From contig CAZFTE010000005.1 in assembly GCA_964521785.1 (NCBI GenBank), positions 1,364 to 65,363 of the forward strand: 64,000 nt of DNA. Reading direction: 5' to 3'. A model generated the notes under the pieces. The model was not told where the DNA came from. It did no database searches and was given only the letters and a program-made list of their open reading frames with translations. Origin of the DNA: an uncultured Lachnospiraceae bacterium (GTDB lineage: Bacteria; Bacillota; Clostridia; Oscillospirales; CAG-272). The translations under genes were made by a program, and so were the position numbers. Position 1 is the stretch's first letter. Each line of letters begins with the position of its first letter. Shown piece by piece: positions 17,056 to 40,518 of the stretch.

Positions 17056-18506
17056 ATTCCAACCACCTTCGTTATAATTTCAATAAAATTGCCCGAAAAG
17101 ATACCAAGTATCACACACATCACAGCGCAAACGAACATCGGAACCTTCATTCGCCAGCCTGCTTCATGAACGCCCGAAAGAGAAAGTTCGGCTCCCTCTT
17201 TGGGGAAATACGCCTTTATAACAACAGAGAGCGCGTAGATAGCCGTAAGGAATGCGGAGATCATAAGCACTATCGTGCCGACGATGGCAAGTGGAGCACC
17301 GTGAGCGATAGCGCCCTCGGCAATGAGCCATTTGCTTACAAAGCCGCAAAGCGGAGGTATACCGACAAGCGACATTGCCGCAACGGAGAAAAATGCAAAT
17401 GTAAACGGCATCTTTCTGCCCAATCCGTCAAGCTCGCTGACGTATTCTTTGCCTGCATGATGAAGCACCGCACCCGCACCGAAAAAGAGGCATATCTTTA
17501 TTACGGAGTGGAATATCATATGAGTGAACGAAGCGATAAGACCTTCGTTCGTCATAAGGGTAGCAGCGAAGATTATGTAAGAAAGGTTTGCGACCGTAGA
17601 ATATGCAAATCTTCTTTTGAAATGAGTCTGTTTGAGCGCTTTAGAAGAGCCGTAGAATATCGTGATGATAGCAAAGATCATCGCAACAGCCTGCGCCCAT
17701 GTTCCCGAAAGCACCTCTGTGCCATAGGAATAATAGATAAGTCTGATAACGGCAAATACGCCCGCCTTAACGACAGCCACCGCATGGAGGAGCGCCGTTA
17801 CGGGAGTGGGAGCAACGGAGGCGGAGGGGAGCCAACCGTGGAACGGGAATATGGCTGCCTTTACGCCGAAACCGAAAAATGCGAAAATGAAAAGTACGAG
17901 CGCTATCGTCTCGTCGCTTCCTACGTTGAGCGAACCGCCGAGCGTAAAGCTCTGCGCGCCACAGCTCACAAGATAAGCTACGCAAGAGAAAGCGAACGCC
18001 GCGCCGCCGAAAGAATACAACATATATTTTTTCGTTGCGGAAACACTCTTTTCGCTTCTGCCGTGCATAACGAGCGGTATAGTGAAAAGAGTGAGCAATT
18101 CATAGAAAAGGTACATCGTTGCGATACCTTCAGCATATGCAACGCCCATCACGGCACCAAAAGCCATAGTGAAGAATGCGTAGAACGCACCGAGGTGATC
18201 TTCATGAGCCATATATTCGAACGCATATACAGCCGTTATGGACCAAAGCGTTGCCGCAAGGCAGGAGAATATCTTGCCTGCGCCGTCTATACGGAGCGTG
18301 AACGATATTTTATCAGTAAAATGTATAAGCTCGAGCGCACCTTCGGGAGTGAATATCGCAAGGAGCCATACCGACACCGCGGAAATAAGCAATGTCGCAA
18401 AAGTAAAGATATTTCTCACCCTTGCTTTGCGAATGGGCAGAAAGTAGAGCAATATGCCGCAAAGTATGGAAAACAATATCGGAAAAAGCATAAATATTTT
18501 ATTCAT
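17052..18506 (-). CDS. mrpD: MrpD/NuoM/N-like antiporter subunit (paralogue 3)
   Basis: About 484 aa with motif GVKAAIFPFHGWLPSASVAPTPVTALLHA. The ORF-track start 18515 is GTG; ATG 18506 is preferred because GGTG lies upstream. Confidence 0.8.
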   Translation of the reverse strand: MNKIFMLFPILFSILCGILLYFLPIRKARVRNIFTFATLLISAVSVWLLAIFTPEGALELIHFTDKISFTLRIDGAGKIFSCLAATLWSITAVYAFEYMAHEDHLGAFYAFFTMAFGAVMGVAYAEGIATMYLFYELLTLFTIPLVMHGRSEKSVSATKKYMLYSFGGAAFAFSCVAYLVSCGAQSFTLGGSLNVGSDETIALVLFIFAFFGFGVKAAIFPFHGWLPSASVAPTPVTALLHAVAVVKAGVFAVIRLIYYSYGTEVLSGTWAQAVAMIFAIITIFYGSSKALKQTHFKRRFAYSTVANLSYIIFAATLMTNEGLIASFTHMIFHSVIKICLFFGAGAVLHHAGKEYVSELDGLGRKMPFTFAFFSVAAMSLVGIPPLCGFVSKWLIAEGAIAHGAPLAIVGTIVLMISAFLTAIYALSVVIKAYFPKEGAELSLSGVHEAGWRMKVPMFVCAVMCVILGIFSGNFIEIITKVVGI

Positions 18507-18516
18507 AATGTTCACC

Positions 18517-19968
18517 TTACATCGTGGAAGAAGCTATCTTTCCTATAATATCCGTAACGGGAGAGGCGAAAAGTCCACCCAATACCGCAATAACGGCAAG
18601 AATTATTATCGGAACAAGCATAAGCACGGGTTCTTTCTTTGTTTCTGTTATCTTTACGGCTTCTTCGCCCGGGAAGAAAGCGCGTATGGAAATCGTAAGG
18701 AGGTAGCCTGCCGTGAGAAGCGCTGAAACGAGCAATATTACAGGCACGAGCCAAGAGAGCGTTCCGTTCAGCGAATCGAGCGATGCGGTGGCGAGGTACC
18801 ATTTGCTTACAAAGCCGCCTGTGGGAGGGATACCTATAAGCGAGAGCGAGAGCAACGTAAAGCAAACTAATGTTACAGGCATCTTTTTGCCGATACCGTT
18901 GATATCGCCGACATTTGTTTTACCGTAAAGGAATATGACAGCGCCACAGCAAAGGAACAAGCCTATCTTTACGACAGAGTGGAAGATGACTTGCAAAAGT
19001 GCGCCTTCCATTCCCGCTTCCGAGAAAAGGAAAAGACCGCAAAGCACATATGCTATCTGGCTGACTGTGGAATACGCAAGACGTTTTTTGAATATCTTTT
19101 CACGATAAGCCATCATGGAACCCATGAGTACAGTTATGAGCGCAAGGCAAATGAGCGCCGTCTGCACCCAAGTTCCCGAAAGTACCTTAGCACCGACGGT
19201 AAAGTACGCCGTGCGGATTATCGCAAGAACGCCCGCTTTTGCAATGATAGCGGAAAGAAGCGCACTCGCGGGAGCCGGAGCAACAGGGTGTGCCGAGGGG
19301 AGCCAGCCGTGGAGTGGAAACATGCCCGCTTTTGCGCCGAATCCGATGCACATCGCAAAAACTACGGCGAGTACAAGTCCGTTTGCGCTCTCCATATTTC
19401 CGCCCGCATTAAACGTGAGCGTAGGAGCATATTCGTTCAAAACAAATATGCCGAAGAGCGCCGTGAAAGCGCCCGCAACGGAATAATAGAGATATTTCTT
19501 TGCCGCTGTAATAGACTCTTTGGAGAGCGTGTGGATAACGAGCGGCATGGAAAACAGCGTTACAAATTCATAGAAAATATACATGGAAACAAGACCGGAA
19601 GAAAGAGCCGCACCTATCATCGCTCCTTCGGAAAGGAGCATGAATGAAAAGAAGCGTTCTTCGTTCTTTTCGTGCTTCATGTAAACGCAAGCGTATATCA
19701 TGACCAAGAGCCAACCGATGCAGACAACGGCGCAAAACAATTTTGCCACGCCGTCAGATGAAAAGCCTATCGTTATCGCTTCGGTTATCTTGAAAACGCC
19801 CGTAGTCATCGTTTCGGAGAAAACGATGACAGCGCAGAATATCGTTTCAACGACCTGCATCGCAGTGATGAGCGCGAGCTTTGCTTTTCTGCTGTTTATT
19901 TTTTTGAGCAACGGTATCATAATGCCGCATATGAGCGGAAATACGACCGCAAGAATAAGTATAAACAT
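18517..19968 (-). CDS. mrpD: MrpD/NuoM/N-like antiporter subunit (paralogue 2)
   Basis: 483-aa polytopic ORF with motif GAKAGMFPLHGWLPSAHPVAPAPASALLSA. Confidence 0.8.
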   Translation of the reverse strand: MFILILAVVFPLICGIMIPLLKKINSRKAKLALITAMQVVETIFCAVIVFSETMTTGVFKITEAITIGFSSDGVAKLFCAVVCIGWLLVMIYACVYMKHEKNEERFFSFMLLSEGAMIGAALSSGLVSMYIFYEFVTLFSMPLVIHTLSKESITAAKKYLYYSVAGAFTALFGIFVLNEYAPTLTFNAGGNMESANGLVLAVVFAMCIGFGAKAGMFPLHGWLPSAHPVAPAPASALLSAIIAKAGVLAIIRTAYFTVGAKVLSGTWVQTALICLALITVLMGSMMAYREKIFKKRLAYSTVSQIAYVLCGLFLFSEAGMEGALLQVIFHSVVKIGLFLCCGAVIFLYGKTNVGDINGIGKKMPVTLVCFTLLSLSLIGIPPTGGFVSKWYLATASLDSLNGTLSWLVPVILLVSALLTAGYLLTISIRAFFPGEEAVKITETKKEPVLMLVPIIILAVIAVLGGLFASPVTDIIGKIASSTM

Positions 19969-19981
19969 TTAAACCTCTCTT

Positions 19982-21490
19982 TCAACGTACATTGATGAAA
20001 AGTTCCAATCCCTTTTCAAGCAAGGAGATGATAGGCTGAGAATTTAAGCCTACCGCAACGTTTATTGCCACAAAAACGATCATCGCAAACGCAAAAGGAG
20101 CTATCTTTGCTATCTTCTTTTTTGTTTTTTTGCTTTCTTCGTCGAGCGGCTTGAATATTACCAATACCGTGCGGAGGAAGTACATTACGTTGAGCATCGT
20201 ACTGATGGCAAGCGCAATAAGAACAAAATATGTTTTCGCACCGTTGCCGAAAGAGGCGAGCGCGAAAAGAAGCTTCGGCACGAATCCCAAGAATATCGGA
20301 ATACCTACCATGGAAAGCGAGCCTGCCAAGAATGCGCCGCCCGCAAATACATTTTTATGCGCGGAAGATGTGAGTGCATTGAAGTTCTGCTTGCCGTCTG
20401 CCGTGTCGCAAAGACCTCCGGCAGAAACGAAGAGCATTGACTTTGTAAGAGAGTGCGATGCTATCTGGAAGAGAGACGCAACGACAGCCGCTCTCGTTCC
20501 CAAGCCGAGACCCATATAGATATAACCTATCTGAGCCGCAGATGAAAAAGCGACCATAAAGTTTATGCTCTTTGCGCGGATAGCGGAAACGGAACCGAAT
20601 ATCATGCCGCATATACCGAACACGAACAAAACGTTCTGCACTCCGCTGTCAAGGAACACATCTATTCCGATAACGCGGAAAAGTATCTTGAGGAGCAACA
20701 CTATATAGCCTTTGGATATAACACCCGAAAGTATAGCGGAAGCCGCGGGAGTTGCCGTGCCGTATGTATCGGGCATCCAAAAATGGAACGGGAAAAGACC
20801 GCTCTTTATGGCAAGACCCGAAACTATAAGTCCTATTGCGACCGTAAGCGGGAGAGTATACTGTCCGCTCTTCCAAACAAGACCTATCGCTTCGTAAAGG
20901 CTGGGGAAAAGAAGCTGACCCGTGATTGCATAGAGCAAGATTATACCGATGAGCAGGAAGCCCGAACCGATAAGGCTGAATATCATGTATCTCGTTGCCG
21001 CGATAAGCGAGCGACCGCTCGAACGAGCCATGAGCAACGAGCAGGACGCGATAGTGCATATCTCGACAAATACGTATGCCGTGAATATATCGTTCGTATA
21101 GCAGAGCGAAGCAAGCGCCGCATGGCAAAGGTTTACCATTACATAGAAGAACTTCTGCTTATCCTCGGCAACATCGGAAAATATCCTGTTTCTGCCGCCG
21201 ATGATGGAAAAGAGCATCACCACTTCAAAGAGCAACGCAAAGAAAGGCTCCAAAAGTCCTGCGGATATCTCGTTGCCTATGGGCGCATCGTAATGACCCA
21301 TGCGGTAAACAAAATATCCTACCTCGGAATTAAGGTTATATAATATAACGGAAGCCGACATAACAGCGCCCGCCGTAAGGAGAAAGTACGTTACGAAACG
21401 GGCTTTCTTTCCGTTAAATGCATAGGCAACGACAGAACAGAAAAGAGAAAGAACTATCGTTATAAAAGGGGAATTCTTAATAAAGTCCAT
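19982..21490 (-). CDS. mrpD: MrpD/NuoN-like antiporter subunit (paralogue 1, most divergent)
   Basis: 502-aa polytopic ORF with motif KSGLFPFHFWMPDTYGTATPAASAILSG. GGAGG upstream of the ATG. Confidence 0.75.
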   Translation of the reverse strand: MDFIKNSPFITIVLSLFCSVVAYAFNGKKARFVTYFLLTAGAVMSASVILYNLNSEVGYFVYRMGHYDAPIGNEISAGLLEPFFALLFEVVMLFSIIGGRNRIFSDVAEDKQKFFYVMVNLCHAALASLCYTNDIFTAYVFVEICTIASCSLLMARSSGRSLIAATRYMIFSLIGSGFLLIGIILLYAITGQLLFPSLYEAIGLVWKSGQYTLPLTVAIGLIVSGLAIKSGLFPFHFWMPDTYGTATPAASAILSGVISKGYIVLLLKILFRVIGIDVFLDSGVQNVLFVFGICGMIFGSVSAIRAKSINFMVAFSSAAQIGYIYMGLGLGTRAAVVASLFQIASHSLTKSMLFVSAGGLCDTADGKQNFNALTSSAHKNVFAGGAFLAGSLSMVGIPIFLGFVPKLLFALASFGNGAKTYFVLIALAISTMLNVMYFLRTVLVIFKPLDEESKKTKKKIAKIAPFAFAMIVFVAINVAVGLNSQPIISLLEKGLELFINVR

Positions 21491-21862
21491 TTATTCCTCC
21501 TCGCTACGCAGATGCATATACATTTCATCGAGATTGAGCGTGTGATATTTTTTGTAAAGACGGACGCAGAGCGCGAGCATGAGCGCCGTAACGCTTACGG
21601 ATACGACGATACCCGTAAGAACGAGACCCGAGGGAATGGGATTGATGTAATCCGCAACATTTACCTCGCCTTCGGACGGTACGATCGGCGTAAGAGCGTT
21701 TTTGATATAGCCCATAGACGCAAGGAAAAGATATACGCCCGTATCCATGATGTTAAGACCCATTATCTTTTTGATAAGATTGCGGGAGAAAACGAGCATG
21801 GTAAAGCCTATCGCGAAAAGTATCATCGCAACAAGCTCTTCATAGTTTTGAATGATATTCAA
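21491..21862 (-). CDS. mrpC: MrpC/NuoK-like subunit
   Basis: Small 3-TM protein. The ORF-track start 21913 is TTG with a 55-nt overlap. I prefer TTG 21862, which overlaps the upstream stop as TTGA and has a G-rich SD. The start is uncertain (ATG 21826 is also possible). Confidence 0.7.
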   Translation of the reverse strand: MNIIQNYEELVAMILFAIGFTMLVFSRNLIKKIMGLNIMDTGVYLFLASMGYIKNALTPIVPSEGEVNVADYINPIPSGLVLTGIVVSVSVTALMLALCVRLYKKYHTLNLDEMYMHLRSEEE

Positions 21863-22767
21863 TTCATGCGCCCCCTTTTGAAAAGCATATAGAAGCTGTA
21901 CATCGTGCAACAAACGACAAGACCTACGGCAATATTGAGCGGCATGATAAGTCCGCCCGAAAGTATATCGCCGGGTGTGCCTGCCGAGATAATGGAATGA
22001 ACGCCGTTAAATTCGTTTCCCGTAAAGAATGAATAGCTCTTTGCAAGGCAATAGAAAGAAAGTGAGCAGATGCTTATGATCTTTACTTTCTTTTCGCTGA
22101 GAACCTTGAGCGCCTGTTCTTCGCCGTATACCATCGCGTAAAGGATAAATCCCGCGCCGAGTATAGCTCCGCCGGAGAAGCCGCCGCCGGGAGAAAGATG
22201 ACCGTTTACAAGGATATATACGCCAAAAACAAGTATGAGCGGAATGAGTATCCTTGCCATCGTTTTAACGATGGGGTCGCGAGAATAGTTGAGTATATCG
22301 CCAGATTCGTCCTTCGGCTTTTTCTTTCTGTCCTCCATAAGAATGAGTACGGCGCAAGTTGCCGTGAAAAGAACGAAAGATTCGCCGAGCGTATCGAACG
22401 CACGGTAGTCAAGTATCATACCCGCAACGGTATTGACAGCGCCTGTTTCATCTCTGCCGTTTACGACATAATGACCCGAAACGTCGTTCATCGTCGGAGT
22501 GTCCGTGTCGGCAAATCCGGGAAGCACCGCTACCGTAGCGATAAGAACACTTATAAGTATTATACAGAATATCGTTGAAAATACTCTGTATTCAAAAGCG
22601 GAAATTTTTTTCTCTTTCTTTTCGAGAGAAGTGATTATCTTGTTTTCGTCTTTGTCCGCTTTTTCGGAGCAAACTTTTTTCGCCTTGCTACCCTCGGATG
22701 CTTTTTCTGTAAGATCTATTTCGCCGTCGAGCCAACGGAGAAATCTTGCGGAGAATTTATTCTTCAT
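21859..22767 (-). CDS. mrpB: MrpB/MnhB-domain subunit with a charged N-terminal extension
   Basis: MnhB signature NTVAGMILDYRAFDTLGE. Start moved to ATG 22767 (AAGGAGG 6 nt upstream). About 60 aa of Lys/Glu-rich sequence precede the first TM. Confidence 0.75.
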   Translation of the reverse strand: MKNKFSARFLRWLDGEIDLTEKASEGSKAKKVCSEKADKDENKIITSLEKKEKKISAFEYRVFSTIFCIILISVLIATVAVLPGFADTDTPTMNDVSGHYVVNGRDETGAVNTVAGMILDYRAFDTLGESFVLFTATCAVLILMEDRKKKPKDESGDILNYSRDPIVKTMARILIPLILVFGVYILVNGHLSPGGGFSGGAILGAGFILYAMVYGEEQALKVLSEKKVKIISICSLSFYCLAKSYSFFTGNEFNGVHSIISAGTPGDILSGGLIMPLNIAVGLVVCCTMYSFYMLFKRGRMN

Positions 22768-23071
22768 TTTCTTCCTCCTTTTCGTCTTCGTCGGTTTCTT
22801 CCTTGTCAACTTCGTTATCTTTATCTATAAGGTGAAGTTTGCGGAGCGTAAGGAAGAAAAGTACGCCTGTGATACCCGCGCCGACAGCCGCCTCTGTTAT
22901 AGCAAGGTCGGGCGAACGCAACAAAAGCCAAACAACGGACATAACGATGCTGTATGAGGTGAATATTATTATCATCGTCATCGGCTTTTTCGAAAATGCC
23001 GTCGCAACGGCACAAACAACAAGAGAAATGAGAAGTATCACGCGGAATACGGTAAGCAATGTTTCAAGCAT
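22757..23071 (-). CDS. MbhD/DUF4040-like small subunit (equivalent to the MrpA C-terminal region)
   Basis: 104-aa, 3-TM protein (DLAITEAAVGAGITG) ending in an acidic tail DKEETDEDEKEEENEE. GGAGGG SD. Confidence 0.65.
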   Translation of the reverse strand: MLETLLTVFRVILLISLVVCAVATAFSKKPMTMIIIFTSYSIVMSVVWLLLRSPDLAITEAAVGAGITGVLFFLTLRKLHLIDKDNEVDKEETDEDEKEEENEE

Positions 23072-23405
23072 TTTCCTCGCCCTCCTTCGGAAGCTCGCAG
23101 TGTTCAGCCAAATGCTCGTCCGTCATATATTCAGCTTTTGTGAGCATATGAGATGTCAAGGGGCAAGTACACCACTGAATAAATACTATAAGCGCAAATT
23201 TCGCGGACATTATGTCGAATCCCGCCGCGATAACGCCGCCTATAAAGAAAAGTATCAAAACGATAGTATCGTTCATAGCGGCGCAATGTATGCGGTTGAG
23301 CGCGAAGCGGAAACGATATGTACCGAGTATGGAGATATAGAGCAAAACGAGCGCAGATATAAAGAATATCGCGATGATGCCGAATCTTATCCAATCCAAA
23401 ATCAT
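23064..23405 (-). CDS. mrpG: MrpG/MnhG subunit
   Basis: 113 aa with MnhG-like YRFRFALNRIHCAAMNDT motif. ATGA overlap with mrpF. Confidence 0.75.
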   Translation of the reverse strand: MILDWIRFGIIAIFFISALVLLYISILGTYRFRFALNRIHCAAMNDTIVLILFFIGGVIAAGFDIMSAKFALIVFIQWCTCPLTSHMLTKAEYMTDEHLAEHCELPKEGEENA

Positions 23406-23698
23406 TTTTTATCCCCCTTATTTCCGCCGAAAAGGTTGATATACATCTTGCAAAGTATCATTACGGAAAGGAAGCTCAATACGACGTAGATTATGCCGAC
23501 GTCGGGGAGGTAATTTTCCTTGAACAACAACGCAAGTATGCATATAGCGCAAACGACGATGGTCGTTATCATGTTGATACCGATGAAACGGTCTACCGTT
23601 CTTTTACCCGTTATCGTGCGGATAAGGCAGAGCAGCGCCGCTATACCGAGAAATATAAGTACCACACTGTAAAGGATATTATAAGCTGTTTCCAACAT
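23402..23698 (-). CDS. mrpF: MrpF/MnhF subunit
   Basis: 98 aa, 3 TM, with MnhF-like GKRTVDRFIGINMITT motif. Confidence 0.75.
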   Translation of the reverse strand: MLETAYNILYSVVLIFLGIAALLCLIRTITGKRTVDRFIGINMITTIVVCAICILALLFKENYLPDVGIIYVVLSFLSVMILCKMYINLFGGNKGDKK

Positions 23699-23700
23699 TA

Positions 23701-24174
23701 TTATTTTTCCATCCTTTCCAATATCTTAACGAATCTGCTGTTCTCTATTCCGTCGATGAACGAACGGTCAAGGCAGTGTACCGTATACTCGTCTCCGTTC
23801 TGGTCTATCGTGATAGTACCGGGAGTAAGAGTGATGGAGTTAGCCAAAAGCATACGTGAAAAGCTCTTTTTCAAGGGTATGTTCACTTTTACGACAGCAG
23901 GCGTAACCTTTCTTTCCTTGTTGAGAATGACGATGACGACGGAGTAATTCGCCTTCAACACTTCCCACACAAGAACGGCGCAATAAGCTATCAACAAGAC
24001 AGCATTTCGCCAAAAATAAAGCTCGGCTTTCGGAGAAAAACCAAGAGCTTTGACAGCAAAAATATACACAAGTGCCGCAACGGCTATACCGGAAACAACT
24101 ATTTCCGCCATACCCGCATCAAGCGTAAATCTGCCGTTCAAAAGTATCCACAGCACAAATAATAATATTGCCAT
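23701..24174 (-). CDS. mrpE: MrpE/MnhE subunit
   Basis: MnhE-like sequence (WILLNGRFTLD...). Start moved to ATG 24174 (AAAGGAAG upstream); the ORF-track N-terminal 33 aa run into AT-rich promoter DNA. Confidence 0.7.
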   Translation of the reverse strand: MAILLFVLWILLNGRFTLDAGMAEIVVSGIAVAALVYIFAVKALGFSPKAELYFWRNAVLLIAYCAVLVWEVLKANYSVVIVILNKERKVTPAVVKVNIPLKKSFSRMLLANSITLTPGTITIDQNGDEYTVHCLDRSFIDGIENSRFVKILERMEK

Positions 24175-24294
24175 AAAAACTTCCTTTCGTTTTTGAATAA
24201 AAAGCAAAAATAACGGTATAAAAACAATGCGCTTATGCACGTTATTCACCGAAATTTTACATTTTATTATCATTTTTTTAAATTTGCATACATT

Positions 24295-24474: not shown

Positions 24475-25794
24475 ATGTCCTTTTTCCTTAAAGGCGTTCA
24501 CGTTCCGCACAGGAAGAATACCGCCGATTCGGCTCCCATAAAGATGACCGTTCCTAAGACGGTCATGATTCCAATGTCAATGCATATAGGAAAGCCGTCC
24601 GTCCCTGTCGTAAGTGTGGGAGATCACGTACATGTCGGCACTCTCATTGGCAAGCAGAACGGCGCAGTCTCTTCTCCCATCTATTCGAGCGTTTCGGGAA
24701 CGGTAAAAAAGATAGACAATATCCTGCTTGCAAACGGAATGTATTCAAAAGCCGTCGTCATAGTTTCCGACGGACTGCAAACAAAAGACCCGAGCATATC
24801 CCCTCCCATCATCGCTTGTAAAGAAGACCTTGTTTCGGCAATACAAAAAAGCGGCATCGTCGGGCTTGGCGGCGCGGGATTCCCGACATATATCAAATTC
24901 AATGTCAAAGATGTTTCGGCAATAGACGAGCTTATCATCAACGGAGCGGAGTGCGAACCGTATATCACGAGCGACACGCGCACTATGATAGACAAAGCGG
25001 ACGATATCGCTTTTGCCATATCCCTTATCAAAAAGCATCTCGGTATCAAAAAAGTCATCATCGGCATAGAGACCAATAAAAAAAGAGCCATCATCAAAAT
25101 GAAAGAGATCGCCGAAGATATAGACGGCGCAGAAGTCAAGGTGTTGCCGAGCGTTTATCCTCAGGGCGGCGAAAAAGTGCTTATCTATCACACGACAGGA
25201 AAAGTGGTTCCCGCGGGAAAATTACCGATAGATATCGGCTGCATCGTTTGCAACTGCACAACAATGGCGGCAATAGCAAAATTCGCAAAAACAGGTATGC
25301 CTTTGGTTGAAAAATGCGTAACCGTCGATGGAAGCGCCGTCAAAGAACCGCAAAACGTTATCGTTCCGATAGGCACGTCCATGGCTGATGTTTTTGAATT
25401 TTGCAAAGGATTCGTATCCGAACCGAAAAAGATACTCTACGGCGGACCGATGATGGGAATATCCGTCGCGAGCATAGATATGCCCGTACTCAAAAACACG
25501 AATGCCCTGCTCGCGTTCAATGAAAAAGACGCGCTCAGACCTAAAACGACACAGTGTATCCATTGCGGTATGTGCGTTTCGCACTGCCCTTTCGGGCTTT
25601 CTCCCATCGGAATAGCAAAAGCGTATAAAAGTGGAAACATCGAGGAGCTGAAGAAGCTTCGCGTCGATATCTGTATGGAATGTGGCTGTTGTTCCTATAT
25701 CTGCCCTGCAAAGCGCCCACTTGCGGAAACGAACAAGTTGGCAAAAAATATGCTTCGCGAATATGTCGCAAAGCAAAAGGAGATACAAAAATGA
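24475..25794 (+). CDS. rnfC: Rnf complex subunit C
   Basis: 439 aa with GLGGAGFPT and two ferredoxin-type clusters, CIHCGMCVSHCP and CMECGCCSYICP. Confidence 0.93.
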   Translation: MSFFLKGVHVPHRKNTADSAPIKMTVPKTVMIPMSMHIGKPSVPVVSVGDHVHVGTLIGKQNGAVSSPIYSSVSGTVKKIDNILLANGMYSKAVVIVSDGLQTKDPSISPPIIACKEDLVSAIQKSGIVGLGGAGFPTYIKFNVKDVSAIDELIINGAECEPYITSDTRTMIDKADDIAFAISLIKKHLGIKKVIIGIETNKKRAIIKMKEIAEDIDGAEVKVLPSVYPQGGEKVLIYHTTGKVVPAGKLPIDIGCIVCNCTTMAAIAKFAKTGMPLVEKCVTVDGSAVKEPQNVIVPIGTSMADVFEFCKGFVSEPKKILYGGPMMGISVASIDMPVLKNTNALLAFNEKDALRPKTTQCIHCGMCVSHCPFGLSPIGIAKAYKSGNIEELKKLRVDICMECGCCSYICPAKRPLAETNKLAKNMLREYVAKQKEIQK

Positions 25795-26714
25795 ACGAAC
25801 TTCATATTTCCGCTTCGCCTCATATATACTGTCCGCGCACGACGCAAAGCATAATGCTCGATGTTTTGATAGCGCTTTTACCCGCTTCTGTCGTCGGAAT
25901 ATTGATATTCGGCATAAGAGCGCTCGCTGTCATAGCCGTTTGCGTGTCATTTGCCGTGATATCGGAATTTATTTTCAATAAGATATGCAAAAAAGAAACT
26001 ACGGTGGGCGACCTCAGCGCCGCCGTTACGGGAACATTGCTCGCGCTGAATCTGCCTGCGGATATTCCGCTTTGGCAAGGCGCGATAGGTTCTGTTTTTG
26101 CAATAGTCATAGTCAAATGCCTTTTCGGCGGTATAGGTCAAAACTTTGCAAATCCCGCAATAACGGGGCGCGTATTCATGCTTATCACGTTCGGCTCGAT
26201 GACAACTTCCGCAATGCCGAAGATAGCGGATACCGCGTCAAGCGCCACACCGCTCGTTTCCCTTGCGAACGGCGAAAGCGTAAAGCTCTCAACGCTTCTG
26301 CTCGGAACGCACGGCGGCACCATCGGTGAGACCTGCATAATAGCGATATTGATAGGCGGCATATACCTCATCGTTCGCAAAGTGATATTGCCGCATACAC
26401 CGATAGCTTTTATAGCAACTGTGTTCGTTCTGTCTTTGGCTGTAACAAAAGACTTTTCATCGGCACTTGCGTATATCCTTTCGGGCGGTCTTTTCATCGG
26501 TGCGTTCTTTATGGCAACAGACTACGCCACGACACCGTTGACATCATGGGGCAAGGTGATATTCGGTATAGGCGCAGGTGTCATAACAGTGGTCATAAGA
26601 TTTTGGGGTTCATACCCGGAAGGCGTGTCGTTTGCGATACTCCTCATGAATATCTTGTCGCCTTATATCGATAAATTAACGGCGAAAAAGCCTTTCGGAG
26701 GTGCAAAAACATGA
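25791..26714 (+). CDS. rnfD: Rnf complex subunit D
   Basis: Polytopic NqrB/RnfD family (FFMATDYATTP). Start placed at ATG 25791, which makes an ATGA overlap with the rnfC stop. Confidence 0.92.
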   Translation: MNELHISASPHIYCPRTTQSIMLDVLIALLPASVVGILIFGIRALAVIAVCVSFAVISEFIFNKICKKETTVGDLSAAVTGTLLALNLPADIPLWQGAIGSVFAIVIVKCLFGGIGQNFANPAITGRVFMLITFGSMTTSAMPKIADTASSATPLVSLANGESVKLSTLLLGTHGGTIGETCIIAILIGGIYLIVRKVILPHTPIAFIATVFVLSLAVTKDFSSALAYILSGGLFIGAFFMATDYATTPLTSWGKVIFGIGAGVITVVIRFWGSYPEGVSFAILLMNILSPYIDKLTAKKPFGGAKT

Positions 26715-27874
26715 AAAGATCTTTTCAAAGCGTTATCGTGCTGACAGTAATATGCATCGTCATCTCCGCGCTTTTGGCGGCGGTAAACGCGATCACATTT
26801 CCGATAATAGAAAAAGCGGAAGCGCAAAAAGCGAACGAAGCTCTCTTGATAGTAATGCCGAACGGCAAAAGCTTTGAGGAGCTTTCGATGATAGAATACG
26901 ATCTTCCATCCTCCGTTACAAACGCATACCGCGCAGAAAACGGCGGATATGTTTTCAAAATGACCACTACGGGATATTCATCCGGGCTTGTCATAATGTG
27001 CGGCATCGATAATAACGGAAAAATAACAGGCGCCGTCTGTCTTGACAGCGGAGAAACATTGAGGCATGAAAAAACGTTCGGCGAAAGATTCATCGGGCTT
27101 GACAAAGACGGTGCCGACATCGTGGATACCATATCGGGTGCAACAAAGACGACTTCGGCTTATAAAAACGCGATAAAAGACGCATTCAATTCATTCATCA
27201 TCTTAAAAGGCGGCAGTGTTGATATTCGAACAGAAGACGAGATCCTTGCGGACGAGCTTTCTGTTGCTCTACCAAACGGCGAAAATTTCAAAAAAGAATT
27301 TATCATCGATGTTTTGGATGGTATCGACGCGATATATCTCGCCCAAAACGGCGAGGGATATGTTTTCTCGGTCAACGGAAGCTTTGTCGGAATAGATAAA
27401 AACGGAGATATCGTCGGCAAGGTCGATAGCCTCGCCGAACGCAAAGCGCTCGATGCTTACGCGATATACAAAAACAGTTCTCTTGATGAATTGGACATAT
27501 CCGTTTACGACGATATCTCGGACAAGATAACAAAAGCTTATAAAACAAGCGGCGGAAATTATGTATTTTCTCTCAGGGCTTCGGGATACGGAATAAACGG
27601 CGAATGGCAAGCCTCGGGCGAATATATCGTTATCGATATCTCGATAACGAGCGGCGGCAAAATAATCTCGTGCGTTACAAGAGAGCAACACGAAACAGAA
27701 GGCATCGGCTCCGTTTGCGCTTTGCCGTCATATTACGAAAGATATAACGGCAAAACATCGCAAACGCTCGATGAAGTAGACGCAATAAGCGGCGCGACAT
27801 TCACCCATAACGGTTACCGCGTTGCAGTCCTCAAGGCTTTGGAAGCCGTAGATATATTGGAGGGAGCAAAATAA
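26711..27874 (+). CDS. rnfG: Rnf complex subunit G, elongated, with two FMN-binding domains
   Basis: 387 aa with an N-terminal TM anchor. Two DxISGAT motifs (S142-T145 at 27134-27145; S360-T363 at 27788-27799). Three GG/EG/GN-YVF repeat starts. Confidence 0.85.
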   Translation: MKRSFQSVIVLTVICIVISALLAAVNAITFPIIEKAEAQKANEALLIVMPNGKSFEELSMIEYDLPSSVTNAYRAENGGYVFKMTTTGYSSGLVIMCGIDNNGKITGAVCLDSGETLRHEKTFGERFIGLDKDGADIVDTISGATKTTSAYKNAIKDAFNSFIILKGGSVDIRTEDEILADELSVALPNGENFKKEFIIDVLDGIDAIYLAQNGEGYVFSVNGSFVGIDKNGDIVGKVDSLAERKALDAYAIYKNSSLDELDISVYDDISDKITKAYKTSGGNYVFSLRASGYGINGEWQASGEYIVIDISITSGGKIISCVTREQHETEGIGSVCALPSYYERYNGKTSQTLDEVDAISGATFTHNGYRVAVLKALEAVDILEGAK

Positions 27875-27876
27875 AA

Positions 27877-28566
27877 ATGAAAAATACAAATAAACTTTCC
27901 TTTCTTCTCAAAGGCTTGCTCCTTGAAAATCCCGTTTTCGTGCTTGTGTTGGGTACTTGCCCGACGCTTGCCACCACGACGAGCGTGATAGGAGCCGTAA
28001 GCATGGGGCTTGCCGCGACCGCGGTGTTGACATGCTCGAACACGGTCATATCATTGCTCCGCAAAGTGATACCCGATAAAGTGCGGATACCTTGCTATAT
28101 AGTTATCATCGCGGGGTTTGTAACTCTCGTTCAGATGCTCATGCACGCATATCTGCCCGAACTTTACGAGCTTCTCGGAATATACCTTGCGCTCATAACC
28201 GTAAATTGTATAATCCTCGGCAGAGCGGAGATGTTCGCAAGCAAAAACGATGTCGGCGCATCTGCCCTTGACGGTCTGGGAATGGGGCTTGGATTTACGC
28301 TCGCCCTCTTTCTCATGTCAACGATAAGAGAAATATTCGGCAACGGCTCTTTCGCAGGCATAGCCATACCGTTTTTGCAAAATTATAAGATAGAGTTTTT
28401 GGTAAGGTCCCCCGGCGGATTTCTCGTGTTCGGCATCTTGATAGCGATAGTGAACGCCGCCGCAAGAGGCAAAGCCCTAAAGAAAAAGGATTTCGGTTGC
28501 GAAGCTTGCCCGAGCGCGGGTATTTGCCATTCCAACTCTTGCACAGCGGAAAAGGAGGAAAAGTGA
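27877..28566 (+). CDS. rnfE: Rnf complex subunit E
   Basis: 229 aa, NqrD/RnfE family (NPVFVLVLGTCPTLA). Confidence 0.92.
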   Translation: MKNTNKLSFLLKGLLLENPVFVLVLGTCPTLATTTSVIGAVSMGLAATAVLTCSNTVISLLRKVIPDKVRIPCYIVIIAGFVTLVQMLMHAYLPELYELLGIYLALITVNCIILGRAEMFASKNDVGASALDGLGMGLGFTLALFLMSTIREIFGNGSFAGIAIPFLQNYKIEFLVRSPGGFLVFGILIAIVNAAARGKALKKKDFGCEACPSAGICHSNSCTAEKEEK

Positions 28567-28567
28567 T

Positions 28568-29167
28568 ATGGATACTTTCAAAAATTTGATGATCATACTC
28601 ATGTCCTCCGTGCTTGTCAACAACTATGTATTGAGCAGATTCTTGGGCATATGTCCCTTTTTGGGCGTTTCGAAAAAGCTCGATCAAGCAAGCGGTATGG
28701 GACTGTCCGTAATATTCGTAATGCTTTTGGCAACAGCGGCTACTTGGCCCATACAAAGATTCATTCTCGAACCGTTGAAACTTGAATTTTTGCAAACGAT
28801 AGTATTCATACTCGTTATAGCAGCCCTCGTTCAGTTTATAGAGATAGCTTTGAAAAAATATATACCCTCGTTGCACAAAAATCTCGGCGTATATCTTCCG
28901 CTTATAACGACAAACTGTGCTGTTCTCGGTGTTACCATAAACAACATCACGGACGGATACAGCTTTATCGAATCCATGGTAAGCTCGCTCGGTTGCGGTC
29001 TTGGATTTTTGCTTGCCATGGTGCTGTTCTCGGGCGTTCGCCAAAGGATAGAGGATTGCGATGCCCCCGAATGTTTCAAAGGGCTTCCGATAACGCTCAT
29101 TGCGGCATCGATAGTTTCGCTCGCTTTCTTCGGCTTTACGGGAATAGTCGATAACATTTTCGCATGA
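28568..29167 (+). CDS. rnfA: Rnf complex subunit A
   Basis: 199 aa, NqrE/RnfA family (LGICPFLGVS). Confidence 0.92.
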   Translation: MDTFKNLMIILMSSVLVNNYVLSRFLGICPFLGVSKKLDQASGMGLSVIFVMLLATAATWPIQRFILEPLKLEFLQTIVFILVIAALVQFIEIALKKYIPSLHKNLGVYLPLITTNCAVLGVTINNITDGYSFIESMVSSLGCGLGFLLAMVLFSGVRQRIEDCDAPECFKGLPITLIAASIVSLAFFGFTGIVDNIFA

Positions 29168-29185: not shown

Positions 29186-29989
29186 ATGTTTAATGCTATT
29201 ATTACAGCCGTGGCGGTCGTTGGCGCCATCGGTCTTATCTGCGGAATAATACTCGCGCTCGCTTCTCATTTCATGAGCGTGAAAACAGACGAGAGAATAT
29301 CCGATATCCGCGAATGTTTGCCGGGCGCAAACTGCGGCGCTTGCGGTTACACGGGTTGCGACGGATATGCAAAAGCGATAATAGAGGATAGCGCAAAAAC
29401 GAATCTCTGCGTTCCTGGCGCTTCCGATGTCGCGAAAAAAATATCGGATATGCTGGGCGTGGAAGCGGAAGCTGTGGAGAGATGCGTTGCGTTCGTTCAC
29501 TGCAACGGAAACTTCGACGCGGCAAAAAGCAAAGCCATCTACGACGGCATTAAAAGCTGCAAAGCGGAATGTCTTATATACGGCGGCTCCAAAGCTTGTG
29601 TTTTTGGTTGTGTCGGTTGCGGAGATTGCGCCTCCGTTTGCCCAAAAGGCGCCATATGCGTCGATGACGGAGTTGCTCGGATAAATCGTTCGCTCTGCAT
29701 CGGGTGCGGCATCTGCGTAAGATCTTGCCCAAAGGGGCTGATAACGCTCATTCCCGCAAAAGCGAAGGTTGCCGTGATGTGCAACAGCAAAGAAAAAGGG
29801 GCTTCGGTTCGCAAAGCTTGCACAAACGGCTGTATCGGTTGCAAAAAATGTGAAACGATATGTCCCCAAGACGCTATTCATGTTGAAAACAATCTTGCCG
29901 TGATAGATCATGACAAATGTGTAGGTTGCGGTCTTTGCGCCAAAAATTGTCCTATTCAATGTATAGTAAAGATACCGAAGAACTCTTGA
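29186..29989 (+). CDS. rnfB: Rnf complex subunit B (polyferredoxin)
   Basis: 267 aa with an N-terminal TM, CGACGYTGC, and several CxxCxxCxxxCP 4Fe-4S motifs. Confidence 0.92.
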   Translation: MFNAIITAVAVVGAIGLICGIILALASHFMSVKTDERISDIRECLPGANCGACGYTGCDGYAKAIIEDSAKTNLCVPGASDVAKKISDMLGVEAEAVERCVAFVHCNGNFDAAKSKAIYDGIKSCKAECLIYGGSKACVFGCVGCGDCASVCPKGAICVDDGVARINRSLCIGCGICVRSCPKGLITLIPAKAKVAVMCNSKEKGASVRKACTNGCIGCKKCETICPQDAIHVENNLAVIDHDKCVGCGLCAKNCPIQCIVKIPKNS

Positions 29990-30043: not shown

Positions 30044-30421
30044 ATGGAAAAGAAAAAAATCAAAAACGACATTATCCTCATCTCAGCGATATTGATATGC
30101 TTGTTTTCGGCGCTTGCCGTATTTTTGACGATACGCAGTGTCGGCGGCTATGCTGTCGTTATAAAAAACGGAGTTGAAACAGCACGCTATCCGCTCTTTA
30201 AAGATGCGGAGATAACGCTGACTTATCCCGAAAGCGATGCATACAATACCTTGAAGATAGAAAACGGCAAAGCGAGCATCATCTCCGCTTCCTGCGCGGA
30301 CGGAATATGCGTCGAGCATCGTGCGATAAGATACGACGGCGAAACGATAGTTTGTTTGCCGAACAAGCTCGTCATAAAGATAATATCCGAAAGCGAGGGC
30401 GCTGTGGACGCGATATCGTAA
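30044..30421 (+). CDS. NusG domain II-containing membrane-anchored protein
   Basis: 125 aa with an N-terminal TM and a beta-rich domain carrying ASCADGICVEH and IVCLPNKLVI, typical of this family. GGAGGG SD. Confidence 0.7.
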   Translation: MEKKKIKNDIILISAILICLFSALAVFLTIRSVGGYAVVIKNGVETARYPLFKDAEITLTYPESDAYNTLKIENGKASIISASCADGICVEHRAIRYDGETIVCLPNKLVIKIISESEGAVDAIS

Positions 30422-30422
30422 A

Positions 30423-30914
30423 ATGAAAACAAAAAAGCTTACTTTTTTGGCGCTTTGCGCTTGCATCGCGCTCATACTGTCATATATCGAATCTTTACTG
30501 CCACCGATATTTTCCGCCATACCCGGCATAAAAGTCGGATTGCCGAATATTATCATCATATTTGCCCTATATCGTTACGGTCTGTGCGCCGCGGGCGCTG
30601 TTTCGATGATACGAATATGCTTATCCGCGCTTCTTTTCGGCAATGTTTGGTCGCTGGTTTACAGCATATGCGGTGGCGCGTTGAGCCTATTTTTGATGTT
30701 TTTATTAAAGAAAACAGAACGATTTTCCTATGTCGGTATCAGCGTAGTCGGCGGCATCTCGCATAATTTGGGGCAAATCTTGCTTGCCATGGTAGCCCTT
30801 AAAACGCGCGAGATAGGCTTCTATATGATAGTTCTTTCGTTCAGCGGCATAATAGCGGGTATATTAGTGGGGCTTGCCTCGGCGCTCATGCTCAAATATG
30901 TAAAAAAGGTATAG
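30423..30914 (+). CDS. Gx transporter family protein (Hpre_diP_synt_I-like)
   Basis: 163 aa, 5 TM, with signature IESLLPPIFSAIPGIKVGLPNIIII. Start lies 1 nt after the upstream stop. Confidence 0.7.
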   Translation: MKTKKLTFLALCACIALILSYIESLLPPIFSAIPGIKVGLPNIIIIFALYRYGLCAAGAVSMIRICLSALLFGNVWSLVYSICGGALSLFLMFLLKKTERFSYVGISVVGGISHNLGQILLAMVALKTREIGFYMIVLSFSGIIAGILVGLASALMLKYVKKV

Positions 30915-30945
30915 AAAGCAAACGCTCTCTATACCTTTTTGTTTT
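30908..30945. terminator. bidirectional terminator between the Gx-transporter gene and apbE
   Basis: Stem GGTATAGA/TCTATACC followed by TTTTTGTTTT, with an A-run on the other side. Confidence 0.55.
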
Positions 30946-31966
30946 ATCTGTTCCAATCCGAGGAATATATCACGCTTTTGTCGTTTTTGACCCACAAAGC
31001 CTTTGTGCCGTCCAAAGAATCAATAAGCGCCATTCCGTCTTCTAGGCTCATACTGAAAAGAGCCGTGGAAAGCGCATCCGCAAGACCGGAATCCTCGCAA
31101 AGCACGGAAACGGAGAGAAATGTGTCATCCGGCATGAGCGTATCCTTGCTTATGATGTGATGATATCTTTTGCCGTCAACATAATAGAATCTTTGATACG
31201 AACCACTCGTAATGAGCGCGCCGCTCGTCATGTAAACATATTCGATATATTCTTCTCCATCATACGGAGCCTCCACTCCGACGGTCCAAGGAGTGCCGTC
31301 GCCGCGCGGACCTATCACGCAAACATTGCCGCCGACATTTATAATGTAACCGCTTTTGCCGATACCTTCAAGATATTCCACAATGCGCGCCGCGGCATAT
31401 CCTTTTGCTATCGCGCCAACATCAACGCTCATTTCTCCATCGGCAAGATAAGCCGTTCCGCGTTCGCGGTCTATGACGATATCGTTTATATCCGTATGTT
31501 TGGAAGCATTAGAAAGCACCTCCATCGATGGTATAGATGCCTTTTCGGGAGAGATAGAGCCTATATCTCTATGATCGTGCCATATCGAAAGCACGCTTCC
31601 CATCGCTATGTTTGTATAACCGGCGGTAATATCGTATATCTCTTTGCCGTATTCCAAAAGAGACAATATTTTTTCATCAAGCTCGATAGGTTCACGCGAA
31701 TTATTGAGCGTATAAAGATTATTCAAACCATCGTAAGGCGTATATATGTCATACAGTTTATGATATTCCTCCAAGAGAGCAAATATATCCTCGCAAACAG
31801 CGTCGAACTCCGCTTTTTCGCTCTCATATCCTATTATGACAGTAGATGTATCAAAATAGTCGAAGTTATACGCGCTGTATCTGTTCTTGCGCTTTTGGCA
31901 AGAACAGCACACGCACGATATAAGCAACGCCAAAGCAACGCATAATGTTTTTTTGAATATCTTCAT
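30944..31966 (-). CDS. apbE: FAD:protein FMN transferase (ApbE family lipoprotein)
   Basis: 340 aa with a signal peptide and Cys-rich lipobox region (ALLISCVCCSC). ApbE motifs VDVGAIAKGYAA and TSGSYQRFYYVDGKRYHHIISKDT. Confidence 0.9.
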   Translation of the reverse strand: MKIFKKTLCVALALLISCVCCSCQKRKNRYSAYNFDYFDTSTVIIGYESEKAEFDAVCEDIFALLEEYHKLYDIYTPYDGLNNLYTLNNSREPIELDEKILSLLEYGKEIYDITAGYTNIAMGSVLSIWHDHRDIGSISPEKASIPSMEVLSNASKHTDINDIVIDRERGTAYLADGEMSVDVGAIAKGYAAARIVEYLEGIGKSGYIINVGGNVCVIGPRGDGTPWTVGVEAPYDGEEYIEYVYMTSGALITSGSYQRFYYVDGKRYHHIISKDTLMPDDTFLSVSVLCEDSGLADALSTALFSMSLEDGMALIDSLDGTKALWVKNDKSVIYSSDWNR

Positions 31967-32029: not shown

Positions 32030-33001
32030 CTATTTTTGTTCGATAGCTTTCATGATAGCCTTTGCCATGCCCGATATCTTAACGGTGCAACCTGCGTTCA
32101 ATATTTCTTCGCCGCCGTAACCGTCGGAAGAAACGAGCTTTTTTATCTCTTCGGCGGTCTTGCCTACGCAGAACTCCGCAAGCTTATCCGCTTGTTCGAA
32201 CCACTCAAGCTTAGAACCCGCTTTCTCCATGCCGTAATCATAGCCTTTTTCTCGTTTTGTCGATACCTTTTCGTCCGCGCTTACGGTGGAAGCTCCGTTT
32301 CTGTCGAATGTGAAATTCATCTCGGCACTGTCGAATATCGTAAAAACACATCTTCCGTCTTTATCAGTAACCGATGCGGCAACGTCTGCCGTTATTTTTC
32401 CGTAGCCGTCCGCTTCCTCGCTCGCACTTCTTCCGCTTTGATAAGCGTCCGTGCCGATAGTCAGAGCGTATTCTCCGTCGATATCGCATTTTTTTGCGTT
32501 ATCACAAGCTTTTTCTATCGCTTTTACCATGTCTGTCAAAACCATCGTACAGCCATGGCTTACAAGCTCCGCATTTCCGTAGCCGTCAGGCGTCAAAGTC
32601 GCCGTTATCTCGCCGTGAGTTTTTCCCTTGCAAAAGTTTTCGAATATTTTTATCTGTTCTGCCTGCGAGATATTGGAACCGACCGTTTTATCGTCGCTCT
32701 CTCTTTTTGTCGCTACGCTTTTGGTTCCGACAAGTTCCCCGCCCGCAGTATATTCTACGGTATCTTCCGCAACATCTATCTTTATATCGATGATATTTCC
32801 GTCTTTGCCGATAATAACAGCGGCAGCCGTCATATCGAAAATACCTTTTCCGTTCGTCTCCTCGATTGCGTCGAGAGCCGAATAAGACGGCACCACCCCA
32901 AGCCCAAGCTTAGTCTCCTCTTCGGCAGAGCCGCAAGCGGCAAGCGCAAACAAGCAAAAAGCCAAAGATAACGCAAATATCATCTTGAAAATTCTTTTCA
33001 T
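32030..33001 (-). CDS. lipoprotein with two FMN_bind-like repeats (PplA-like architecture, non-canonical G-C-T motifs)
   Basis: 323 aa with lipobox LAAC (C23). Two about 140-aa repeats, each ending with STKRE..GxxYG..(W)..Q..F..GKT...DGYG...L..GCT...MxKAI. G150-C151-T152 at 32554-32546 and G304-C305-T306 at 32092-32084. Confidence 0.6.
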   Translation of the reverse strand: MKRIFKMIFALSLAFCLFALAACGSAEEETKLGLGVVPSYSALDAIEETNGKGIFDMTAAAVIIGKDGNIIDIKIDVAEDTVEYTAGGELVGTKSVATKRESDDKTVGSNISQAEQIKIFENFCKGKTHGEITATLTPDGYGNAELVSHGCTMVLTDMVKAIEKACDNAKKCDIDGEYALTIGTDAYQSGRSASEEADGYGKITADVAASVTDKDGRCVFTIFDSAEMNFTFDRNGASTVSADEKVSTKREKGYDYGMEKAGSKLEWFEQADKLAEFCVGKTAEEIKKLVSSDGYGGEEILNAGCTVKISGMAKAIMKAIEQK

Positions 33002-36777: not shown

Positions 36778-36877
36778 TAAACAGTTTTGTGCTTTTTGTT
36801 TGCAAAACATGGACAAAATAGCATTTTTTCTGTTTAAAAATCGCATCTATCTCTCACATCGAAAATGCGCTCTCGGC

Positions 36878-36914
36878 AAAAAAAATATATCGGTCTTACG
36901 ACCGATATATTTTT
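36878..36914 (-). terminator. intrinsic terminator after the flotillin gene
   Basis: 11-bp stem ATATATCGGTC/GACCGATATAT, loop TTAC, with A8 and T4 flanks. Confidence 0.75.
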
Positions 36915-36918
36915 CATG

Positions 36919-38545: not shown

Positions 38546-38574
38546 ATTATAGCATATTGCCAATATTTTGTCAA
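38546..38574 (-). promoter_or_regulatory. perfect-consensus sigma-A promoter
   Basis: On the minus strand: TTGACA (38574-38569), exactly 17-nt spacer, TATAAT (38551-38546). Confidence 0.75.
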
Positions 38575-38663
38575 TAGTCAGCAAAAATTTTTTCAAAGCG
38601 ACAAAAATGAACAGTGAAATGCTCCGTCGAGAGCATTGCGCCGTTCATTTATCGTTCTTCTAT

Positions 38664-39917: not shown

Positions 39918-39933
39918 TTTTCAGCACCTCTGC

Positions 39934-40518
39934 TTATGCTCTTTTTTCAATAACCTTATCGATAAGACCGTAATCGGCAGCTTCCTGTGCGGACATGAAG
40001 TTATCTCTTTCTGTATCCACTGCGATCTGATCTACTGTCTTACCTGTTTCACGAGCGAGTATCTCGTTGAGTTTCTGACGAGTGCGGAGGATATGGTCCG
40101 CGTGTATCTTGATATCGCTCGCCTGACCCTGCATTCCGCCCAAAGGCTGATGTATCATTATCTCGCTGTTGGGGAGCGCCCAACGTTTACCCGGAGTACC
40201 TGCTGCAAGCAAGAATGCGCCCATGGAAGCCGCCATACCGATGCAAATCGTGCAAACATCGCATTTGATATAATTCATCGTATCGTAAATAGCGAAACCT
40301 GCGGAAACGGAGCCGCCGGGGCTATTGATATAAAGCATTATATCCTTATCGGGATCCTGAGACTCAAGGAAAAGAAGCTGTGCAACAACAAGAGAAGCTG
40401 TTGTGTCGTTTACCTCGTCTGTCAAAAAAATGATTCTGTCGTTAAGAAGGCGAGAATAGATATCGTATGCGCGTTCGCCTCTGCCTGTCTGTTCAACGAC
40501 TGTTGGTACAAGTGCCAT
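39934..40518 (-). CDS. clpP: ATP-dependent Clp protease proteolytic subunit ClpP
   Basis: ClpP catalytic contexts [11 protein letters not shown] and MIHQPLGG. Start moved to ATG 40518 (AAAGGAG upstream); the ORF-track extension reads through a repeat hairpin. Confidence 0.93.

Follow-up and report, generated by a model that had tools for sequence, protein, structure and literature searches.

We analyzed a stretch of 64,000 nucleotides (nt) from an uncultured Lachnospiraceae bacterium (contig CAZFTE010000005.1 of assembly GCA_964521785.1; Oscillospirales, CAG-272 in GTDB), hereafter the window, with a focus on the RnfG protein encoded in its rnf operon. The rnfG gene (positions 26711..27874, plus strand) is an uninterrupted open reading frame (ORF) of 387 amino acids (aa) that specifies a transmembrane anchor, a first flavin domain (D1), a spacer half-domain and a second flavin domain (D2). 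A ribosome-binding site (GGAGGTG) is located 7 nt 5' of the ATG, which overlaps the stop codon of rnfD (ATGA). By the Pfam assignments of all six genes, the operon reads rnfCDGEAB, with rnfG in the slot flanked by rnfD and rnfE, and the same gene order is found in 80 related loci.

The protein matches RnfG of Clostridium tetanomorphum (7zc6_G) with an E-value of 7e-8 in phmmer, RnfG of Acetobacterium woodii also matches by sequence, and it is the N-terminal part of the 387-aa chain to which these solved structures align. An AlphaFold2 (AF2) model, built on the alignment of homologues described below, consists of a long N-terminal helix and three folded modules (mean predicted local distance difference test, pLDDT, 88.4; predicted TM-score, pTM, 0.66). 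The top matches of this model among solved structures in a Foldseek search of the PDB are all RnfG chains, namely 9eri_G (A. woodii), 7zc6_G (C. tetanomorphum) and 8rb9_G (Azotobacter vinelandii), with probability 1.00 and target TM-scores of 0.60-0.71. The 387-aa protein is a genuine RnfG of the Rnf (ferredoxin:NAD+ oxidoreductase) ion pump. It shares with canonical RnfG and NqrC proteins (7ZC6 G, 9ERI G, 8RB9 G and Vibrio cholerae NqrC) the transmembrane anchor, the linker helix, the alpha/beta domain for flavin mononucleotide (FMN), the threonine of the S-G-A-T motif and the rnfD-rnfG-rnfE setting. However, these canonical chains have 187-207 aa and a single covalent FMN, whereas the protein described here has about 220 aa more, made up of the spacer and the second flavin domain; a first-pass annotation of this DNA, made from the sequence alone, had rightly called it nearly twice the normal length.

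The membrane anchor and linker helix (26714..26854; aa 2-48) appear in the AF2 model as a single long helix with a hydrophobic core at approximately aa 5-27, and this stretch aligns with the N-termini of RnfG 7zc6_G and 9eri_G. Regions of RnfG were scanned as separate fragments against the FMN_bind family (Pfam PF04205; gathering cut-off 22 bits), which returned two matches. The membrane-proximal domain D1 (26861..27214; aa 51-168) contains an FMN_bind match at aa 88-159 (42.7 bits) and the motif VDTISGAT, with FMN predicted on T145 (nt 27143-27145). The second complete flavin domain D2 (27431..27871; aa 241-387) contains an FMN_bind match at aa 306-378 (41.6-42.1 bits), an invariant cysteine (C336) and the motif VDAISGAT, with FMN predicted on T363 (nt 27797-27799). 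The spacer between them (27215..27430; aa 169-240) repeats the N-terminal half of the RnfG domain in truncated form, with a helix and beta strands; alone it has no Pfam match and no flavinylation motif.

Sub-profiles for D1, the spacer and D2 were cut from the homologue alignment and compared profile against profile using hhalign. D1 (aa ~39-168) and D2 (aa ~244-387) are homologous with a probability of 99.5% and an E-value of 1.7e-22 (35% identity over 128 columns), and this homology spans the whole length of the domain, beyond the 77-residue Pfam core. The middle piece (aa 174-238) matches the linker helix and beta strands of the N-terminal half of D1 (probability 94.5%, E-value 7.7e-8) and ends before the flavin-bearing part of the domain. 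Therefore, the main structural claims of the first-pass annotation hold: two complete FMN_bind domains, S-G-A-T sites at exactly T145 and T363, a truncated middle copy between the two full domains, and three strand motifs, which we located at aa 71-82, 207-219 and 275-286. In the AF2 model the spacer has pLDDT values of 83-97; by sequence and model it is a rigid element, and all RnfG modules lie outside the cytoplasmic membrane of this Gram-positive gut anaerobe. A circularly permuted double-flavin protein of the kind shown by Huang et al. 2024 (Fig. 3B) was considered and rejected, since both a motif and a C-terminal helix are present within D1 itself, and the two domains align end to end.

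The two domains differ in the loop that reads ETPGLG in A. woodii RnfG. In D1 this loop is ETLRHEKTFG (nt 27044-27073, aa 112-121; family consensus ETLGYEKTYG), whereas D2 keeps ET-E-G-I-G and adds the invariant Cys336 (nt 27680-27718, aa 324-336), and is nearer to the A. woodii form. Two cysteines of D1, C97 and C110, are nearly invariant among the homologues. On metagenomic contigs, single-domain RnfGs of 166-184 aa are encoded in the slot flanked by rnfD and rnfE; these proteins are 45-53% identical to D1 and have its unusual ETLGYEKTYG loop too. Because these single-domain RnfGs of relatives match both D1 and its loop, D1 is the canonical domain.

To describe conservation, we used an alignment of 114 full-length homologues of 386-397 aa, which are mostly 50-67% identical to the query. 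T145 and T363 are each invariant (114/114), as is the G-A-T core of D2; the pattern D-x-[IV]-x-G-A-T is kept at both sites, and the full D2 motif D-x-I-x-G-A-T is present in nearly all homologues. The frequency of the majority residue is 0.73 in D1, 0.70 in the spacer and 0.71 in D2, and the only variable stretch of the alignment is a short helix at aa 241-256. D2 is thus unlike a decayed duplicate, because its conservation equals that of D1, and the motif-less middle copy shows what loss looks like.

A protein search with RnfG gave 2062 matches, and 114 of the 120 best have 386-397 aa and the same layout, which rules out an assembly or fusion artefact. A scan in which each GTDB species was represented by one genome found 453 relatives; the best 80 of them, to which the counts out of 80 loci below refer, all cover residues 1-385/387. 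All of these 80 come from metagenome-assembled genomes (MAGs) or assemblies of uncultured organisms, and the source, where the isolate name indicates one, is animal gut or faeces. Their labels, as given by the MAG depositors, include Acutalibacteraceae, Oscillospiraceae, Ca. Fimenecus, Ca. Flemingiibacterium, Bianqueaceae, Eubacteriales and 'Lachnospiraceae'. The D1-spacer-D2 form of RnfG is therefore present in at least 80 species-level genomes. The nearest genome locus (L001) encodes an RnfG of 78% identity and the nearest protein (P0001, from a Logan assembly) is 95% identical; the public gene index has no entry identical to the 387-aa sequence. In a library clustered at 50% identity, 181 clusters match RnfG with E < 1e-30.

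Hidden Markov models for D1, the spacer and D2 were run on 269 relatives. The D1-spacer-D2 layout was mapped in 179 of these proteins and D1 only in 23. Longer forms have two spacer-D2 units after D1 (P0008, P0009, P0251 and P0261) or three (P0241 and P0246), and further layouts include D1-spacer-D1-spacer-D2 as well as proteins with up to 13 flavin domains. In the longer forms, three to four FMN_bind domains are confirmed by Pfam. Among relatives that include P0330 and P0381, proteins of up to 1636 aa contain 8-13 domains of the FMN_bind type. Judged from the mapped layouts, the growth unit of RnfG-like proteins is a spacer plus a flavin domain, and these proteins form a graded series with no dichotomy between one and two domains.

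A class of 'multi-flavinylated RnfGs' was reported by Meheust et al. 2021 (eLife 10:e66878; PMC8238504) in a survey of 31,910 genomes, along with the proposal that these proteins open a second electron path to extracytosolic acceptors. The protein described here is alike in having more than one PF04205 domain in RnfG, an rnf cluster with RnfB and ApbE, and the same proposed role; with two PF04205 matches and both RnfB and ApbE encoded in the cluster, it falls under their definition. We are highly confident that it is a two-flavin RnfG belonging to this known class. That publication presents the class within its survey and gives no anatomy, and the literature consulted does not describe the D1-spacer-D2 layout, the spacer-D2 repeat, the gut clade or the lipoprotein with an A-G-C-T motif that is discussed below. 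The rarity and novelty implied by the first-pass annotation were overstated, as the double form is the norm in this clade and both the class and the hypothesis were published in 2021. That annotation had also named, as the case that would undo its claim, a double-domain RnfG that is common and already characterized in the clade: the form is indeed common, as the best 80 loci show, whereas targeted literature searches found no experimental study of a two-flavin RnfG. Later papers describe multi-FMN proteins structurally or biochemically, none of them a multi-flavin RnfG, and a 2025 review of Rnf and Nqr counts one FMN per RnfG (PMC12174285).

The remaining genes of the operon are all encoded on the plus strand. 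The rnfC gene (24475..25794) encodes a 439-aa protein with Pfam domains RnfC_N, Complex1_51K, SLBB and Fer4. It is followed by rnfD (25788..26714; 308 aa from the ATG at 25788, an inferred start, as the ORF could begin at 25680; NQR2_RnfD_RnfE, 362 bits) and, downstream of rnfG, by rnfE (27877..28566; 229 aa; Rnf-Nqr, 214 bits), rnfA (28568..29167; 199 aa; Rnf-Nqr, 204 bits) and rnfB (29186..29989; 267 aa; FeS and several Fer4 domains). RnfD has a flavinylation-type motif, DTASSAT (nt 26229-26249, aa 148-154), with T154 at nt 26247-26249 and a serine where the RnfG sites have glycine.

Four accessory genes follow rnfB. The first (30044..30421, plus strand) encodes a 125-aa membrane-anchored protein with a NusG_II domain (90 bits) and the second (30423..30914, plus strand) a 163-aa EetB-type membrane protein (Pfam Hpre_diP_synt_I, PF07456, 121.7 bits). 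On the minus strand are the genes for an ApbE flavin transferase (30944..31966; 340 aa; Pfam ApbE, 217 bits), which has a lipoprotein-type N-terminus (LISC) and matches the NCBIfam ApbE model with an E-value of 3.7e-26, under the cut-off of that model, and for a conserved lipoprotein (32030..33001; 323 aa). The order rnfCDGEAB-NusG_II-EetB-lipoprotein-ApbE is conserved among the related loci: the NusG_II gene, directly after rnfB, and the EetB-type gene are found in 72 of the 80 loci, the lipoprotein in 67 and ApbE in 58, and at least some of the loci that lack accessory genes end early at a contig end. The lipoprotein-ApbE pair is inverted in the window and in two related loci (L001 and L003), whereas in most related loci it is encoded on the same strand as rnf, and the order is EetB-lipoprotein-ApbE. 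Among five loci with single-domain rnf operons, four are on contigs too short to be informative; in the remaining one (L085; n = 1), which has enough flanking sequence, none of the four accessory genes follows rnfB.

The PF07456 protein EetB binds flavin adenine dinucleotide (FAD); in Listeria, both the export of FAD to FmnB, which is an ApbE homologue, and the flavinylation of PplA require EetB, and in 572 Clostridia genomes it colocalizes with Rnf genes (PMC9973259). The EetB-type protein of the window is likely the FAD-export subunit that supplies ApbE. According to entries in the supplementary table of Meheust et al. 2021, the NusG_II and EetB pair also occurs in organohalide-respiration flavinylation clusters; targeted searches for literature on NusG_II together with ApbE found nothing.

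The conserved lipoprotein has a lipobox (LAAC) and is predicted to be a tandem of two divergent FMN_bind-type domains. Its two halves, of about 150 aa each, are homologous (E-value 1.3e-42, 35% identity), and each ends with an A-G-C-T motif followed by a helix; the motif threonines are T152 (nt 32546-32548) and T306 (nt 32084-32086), and G-C-T is invariant in 76 of 76 homologues. No Pfam or NCBIfam family covers the protein. Its AF2 model (pLDDT 92.2, pTM 0.86) contains strands of 14-15 residues. The family profile matches 2kzx_A, a nuclear magnetic resonance structure of an uncharacterized Clostridium thermocellum protein, with an E-value of 9.6e-8; in this alignment 'evinaGCTi' of the lipoprotein is placed on 'DAIS-GATI', the canonical ApbE motif, and the aligned 2kzx segment scores 25.7 bits against Pfam FMN_bind (cut-off 22). 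Lipoprotein homologues of 34-38% identity are encoded in the same cluster with an RnfG of 391 or 394 aa in both reverse look-ups (2/2). Matches of some members to Mfa2, SPRY and WNK are weak and inconsistent, and an assignment to any of these known families was rejected. The FMN-bind2 family (Huang et al. 2024, mSystems 9:e00375-24) is described as domains of ~150-160 aa with an extended beta-sheet, which occur in even copy number as a pseudo-symmetric two-site unit; the size, copy number and long strands of the lipoprotein fit this description, whereas its motif, with cysteine for alanine and no upstream aspartate in register, does not. The lipoprotein may be a divergent two-site flavoprotein with a cysteine in the ApbE motif, and it is a candidate electron partner of RnfG D2.

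We propose the following scheme for the cluster. The adjacent lipoprotein-type ApbE would attach FMN to T145 and T363, using FAD exported by the EetB-type protein. D1 would carry out the normal shuttle between the [2Fe-2S] cluster of RnfA/E and the flavin of RnfD, according to the mechanism reviewed in PMC12174285. D2, kept off the membrane by the spacer, would take electrons from D1 and form a side branch directed outward, with the co-conserved lipoprotein as the likeliest recipient; the lipoprotein could in turn pass them to a soluble or wall-associated acceptor, and the path could run in reverse. The cluster would then be an Rnf-fed analogue of the PplA/FmnB/EetB extracellular electron-transfer module of Listeria. 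The strongest argument for an outward wire rather than an internal part of the pump is that relatives add spacer-D2 units serially. Taken as a whole, a two-flavin RnfG with D2 as an outward side branch and the lipoprotein as recipient is the explanation we favor, if only somewhat; the specific step from D2 to the lipoprotein is more tentative and has slightly less than an even chance of being right. The first-pass annotation had suggested that an extra flavin could extend the electron path outward to the neighboring lipoprotein. This suggestion is partly supported, in that it fits the invariant sites, the conservation of D2 and spacer, the serial units, the presence of the lipoprotein in 67 of 80 loci, its position next to ApbE and its FMN_bind-related domains.

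Several observations weigh against this scheme. At a pTM of 0.66, the relative placement of the RnfG modules in the model is uncertain. RnfG scores below all NCBIfam RnfG cut-offs (TIGR01947, 54.6 versus 102 bits; NF045876, 48.5 versus 205 bits), and because scores fall under these cut-offs, public records label its relatives as 'FMN-binding protein'; the low scores reflect divergence and inserted modules and are compatible with both the fold and the place in the operon. As for the lipoprotein, its model has no significant Foldseek match among the solved structures of the PDB, its link to FMN_bind is transitive through 2kzx_A, and the direct profile comparison with RnfG is not significant (E-value 0.017-0.058). 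Its A-G-C-T motif is offset by one residue and lacks the aspartate of the ApbE consensus, and flavinylation of the lipoprotein is accordingly a doubtful prediction. The link between D2 and the lipoprotein is drawn from synteny in the best 80 loci and from the single negative case. Finally, the neighbors scanned, in part of the window, include Mrp subunits, a CitMHS transporter, a phosphoesterase and an epimerase, with no terminal reductase or obvious acceptor gene among them.

This last observation would also fit a role of D2 within the Rnf cycle, where it could be an electron buffer or a second shuttle head between RnfA/E and RnfD, or could tune Na+/H+ coupling, and where an external partner is unneeded. 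Such a role is compatible with the equal conservation of D1 and D2, with the retention of the ET-x-G-[IL]-G loop (ETPGLG in A. woodii) by D2 and not by D1, and with the swinging of RnfG/NqrC between RnfA/E and RnfD, the energetics of which the current review leaves open (PMC12174285). However, three, four or more serial spacer-D2 units in relatives make little sense for an internal shuttle, and in the AF2 model D1 and the rigid spacer stand between D2 and the membrane anchor. Single-domain RnfGs that are similar to D1 work without D2, and an internal role gives the co-conserved extracytoplasmic FMN_bind-type lipoprotein no task. We consider this alternative unlikely.

The outward branch from D2 to the lipoprotein could also be read in the opposite direction, with the lipoprotein and D2 gathering electrons supplied from outside (by reduced flavins, quinones, thiols or a partner cell) and feeding them through D1 and Rnf to NAD+ or, by use of the ion gradient, to ferredoxin. 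Rnf is reversible, the architecture and synteny fit both directions equally, and a large Mrp-type antiporter cluster, adjacent to rnf both in the window and in 11 of the 80 loci, could manage the ion gradient. On the other side, the sequence gives no hint of direction, and fermentative gut Clostridia generally want sinks for reductant, not sources. An inward wire is quite improbable. A non-redox or decayed D2, retained without flavin as a structural spacer or wall-contact domain, is very improbable: flavinylation of T363 is a prediction and the middle copy shows that this lineage tolerates degenerate domain copies, but that copy has lost the motif entirely, whereas D2 keeps T363 and G-A-T in 114 of 114 homologues and the full motif in nearly all, with an FMN_bind score equal to that of D1.

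Among known systems, the cluster can be compared with the flavin-based extracellular electron-transfer locus of Listeria monocytogenes (PplA, FmnB/ApbE, EetA/EetB, Ndh2, DmkA/B; Light et al. 2018; Rivera-Lugo et al. 2023). Both co-encode a surface lipoprotein, with two FMN_bind domains in Listeria and two predicted FMN_bind-type domains here, an ApbE-type transferase and EetB (PF07456). In Listeria, however, the electrons come from Ndh2 and demethylmenaquinone, whereas here the source would be Rnf (ferredoxin/NADH) through the extra RnfG flavin; moreover, unlike PplA, the lipoprotein of the window is not recognized by Pfam FMN_bind and has A-G-C-T in place of S-G-A-T. Since no Ndh2- or Dmk-like gene was found among the genes scanned around the cluster (part of the window), we do not file it as a member of the PplA module, which it resembles and by analogy with which it may work. 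The proteins SaFMN3 and CbFMN4 (Tong et al. 2023, BBA Advances) likewise have several ApbE-flavinylated FMN_bind domains on one extracytosolic polypeptide, and their multiple covalent FMNs have been shown experimentally, but they are secreted soluble proteins and not Rnf subunits. Two features, the co-conserved A-G-C-T tandem lipoprotein and the repeat logic of spacer plus flavin domain, may be new.

A bolder extension of the D2 side branch can be imagined, although it is on the unlikely side. The ten-gene cluster might serve uncultured gut Oscillospirales as a machine for extracellular electron transfer driven by ferredoxin/NADH, in which electrons would pass from D1 to D2 and on to a PplA-like lipoprotein with an undescribed A-G-C-T variant of the ApbE motif. 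The invariant cysteine next to the flavin-bearing threonine would give flavin-thiol chemistry (e.g. extracellular reduction of disulfides or oxygen), and Rnf would be a branch point for disposal of reductant as well as an ion pump.

Rnf is the central energy-conserving complex in many gut and rumen anaerobes, and the solved structures and mechanistic models all take one flavin on RnfG, whereas a large clade of uncultured animal-gut Clostridia has two and relatives have three or four. If the extra flavins do form an exit path, electrons derived from ferredoxin or NADH could reach acceptors outside the cell, and the modelling of fermentation balance and of oxygen and redox tolerance in these bacteria would change. 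As an exit path was already proposed in 2021, what this locus offers is a compact and well-defined test case, with two sites and one partner, rather than a discovery.

Two further ORFs of the window, both on the plus strand (36865-38319, 484 aa, and 38568-39953, 461 aa), have no Pfam match at E <= 1e-5. Divergent from rnf, on the minus strand at 15067-24273, is the Mrp/Mnh-type cation:proton antiporter cluster, whose subunits are four of the Proton_antipo_M type (662, 487, 483 and 502 aa), an MnhB/MbhE-like one and small ones. In the 11 loci mentioned above, the antiporter subunits tested (from the 502-aa subunit onward) are located directly upstream of rnfC. The adjacency of the Mrp and rnf clusters suggests linked handling of Na+/H+ gradients.

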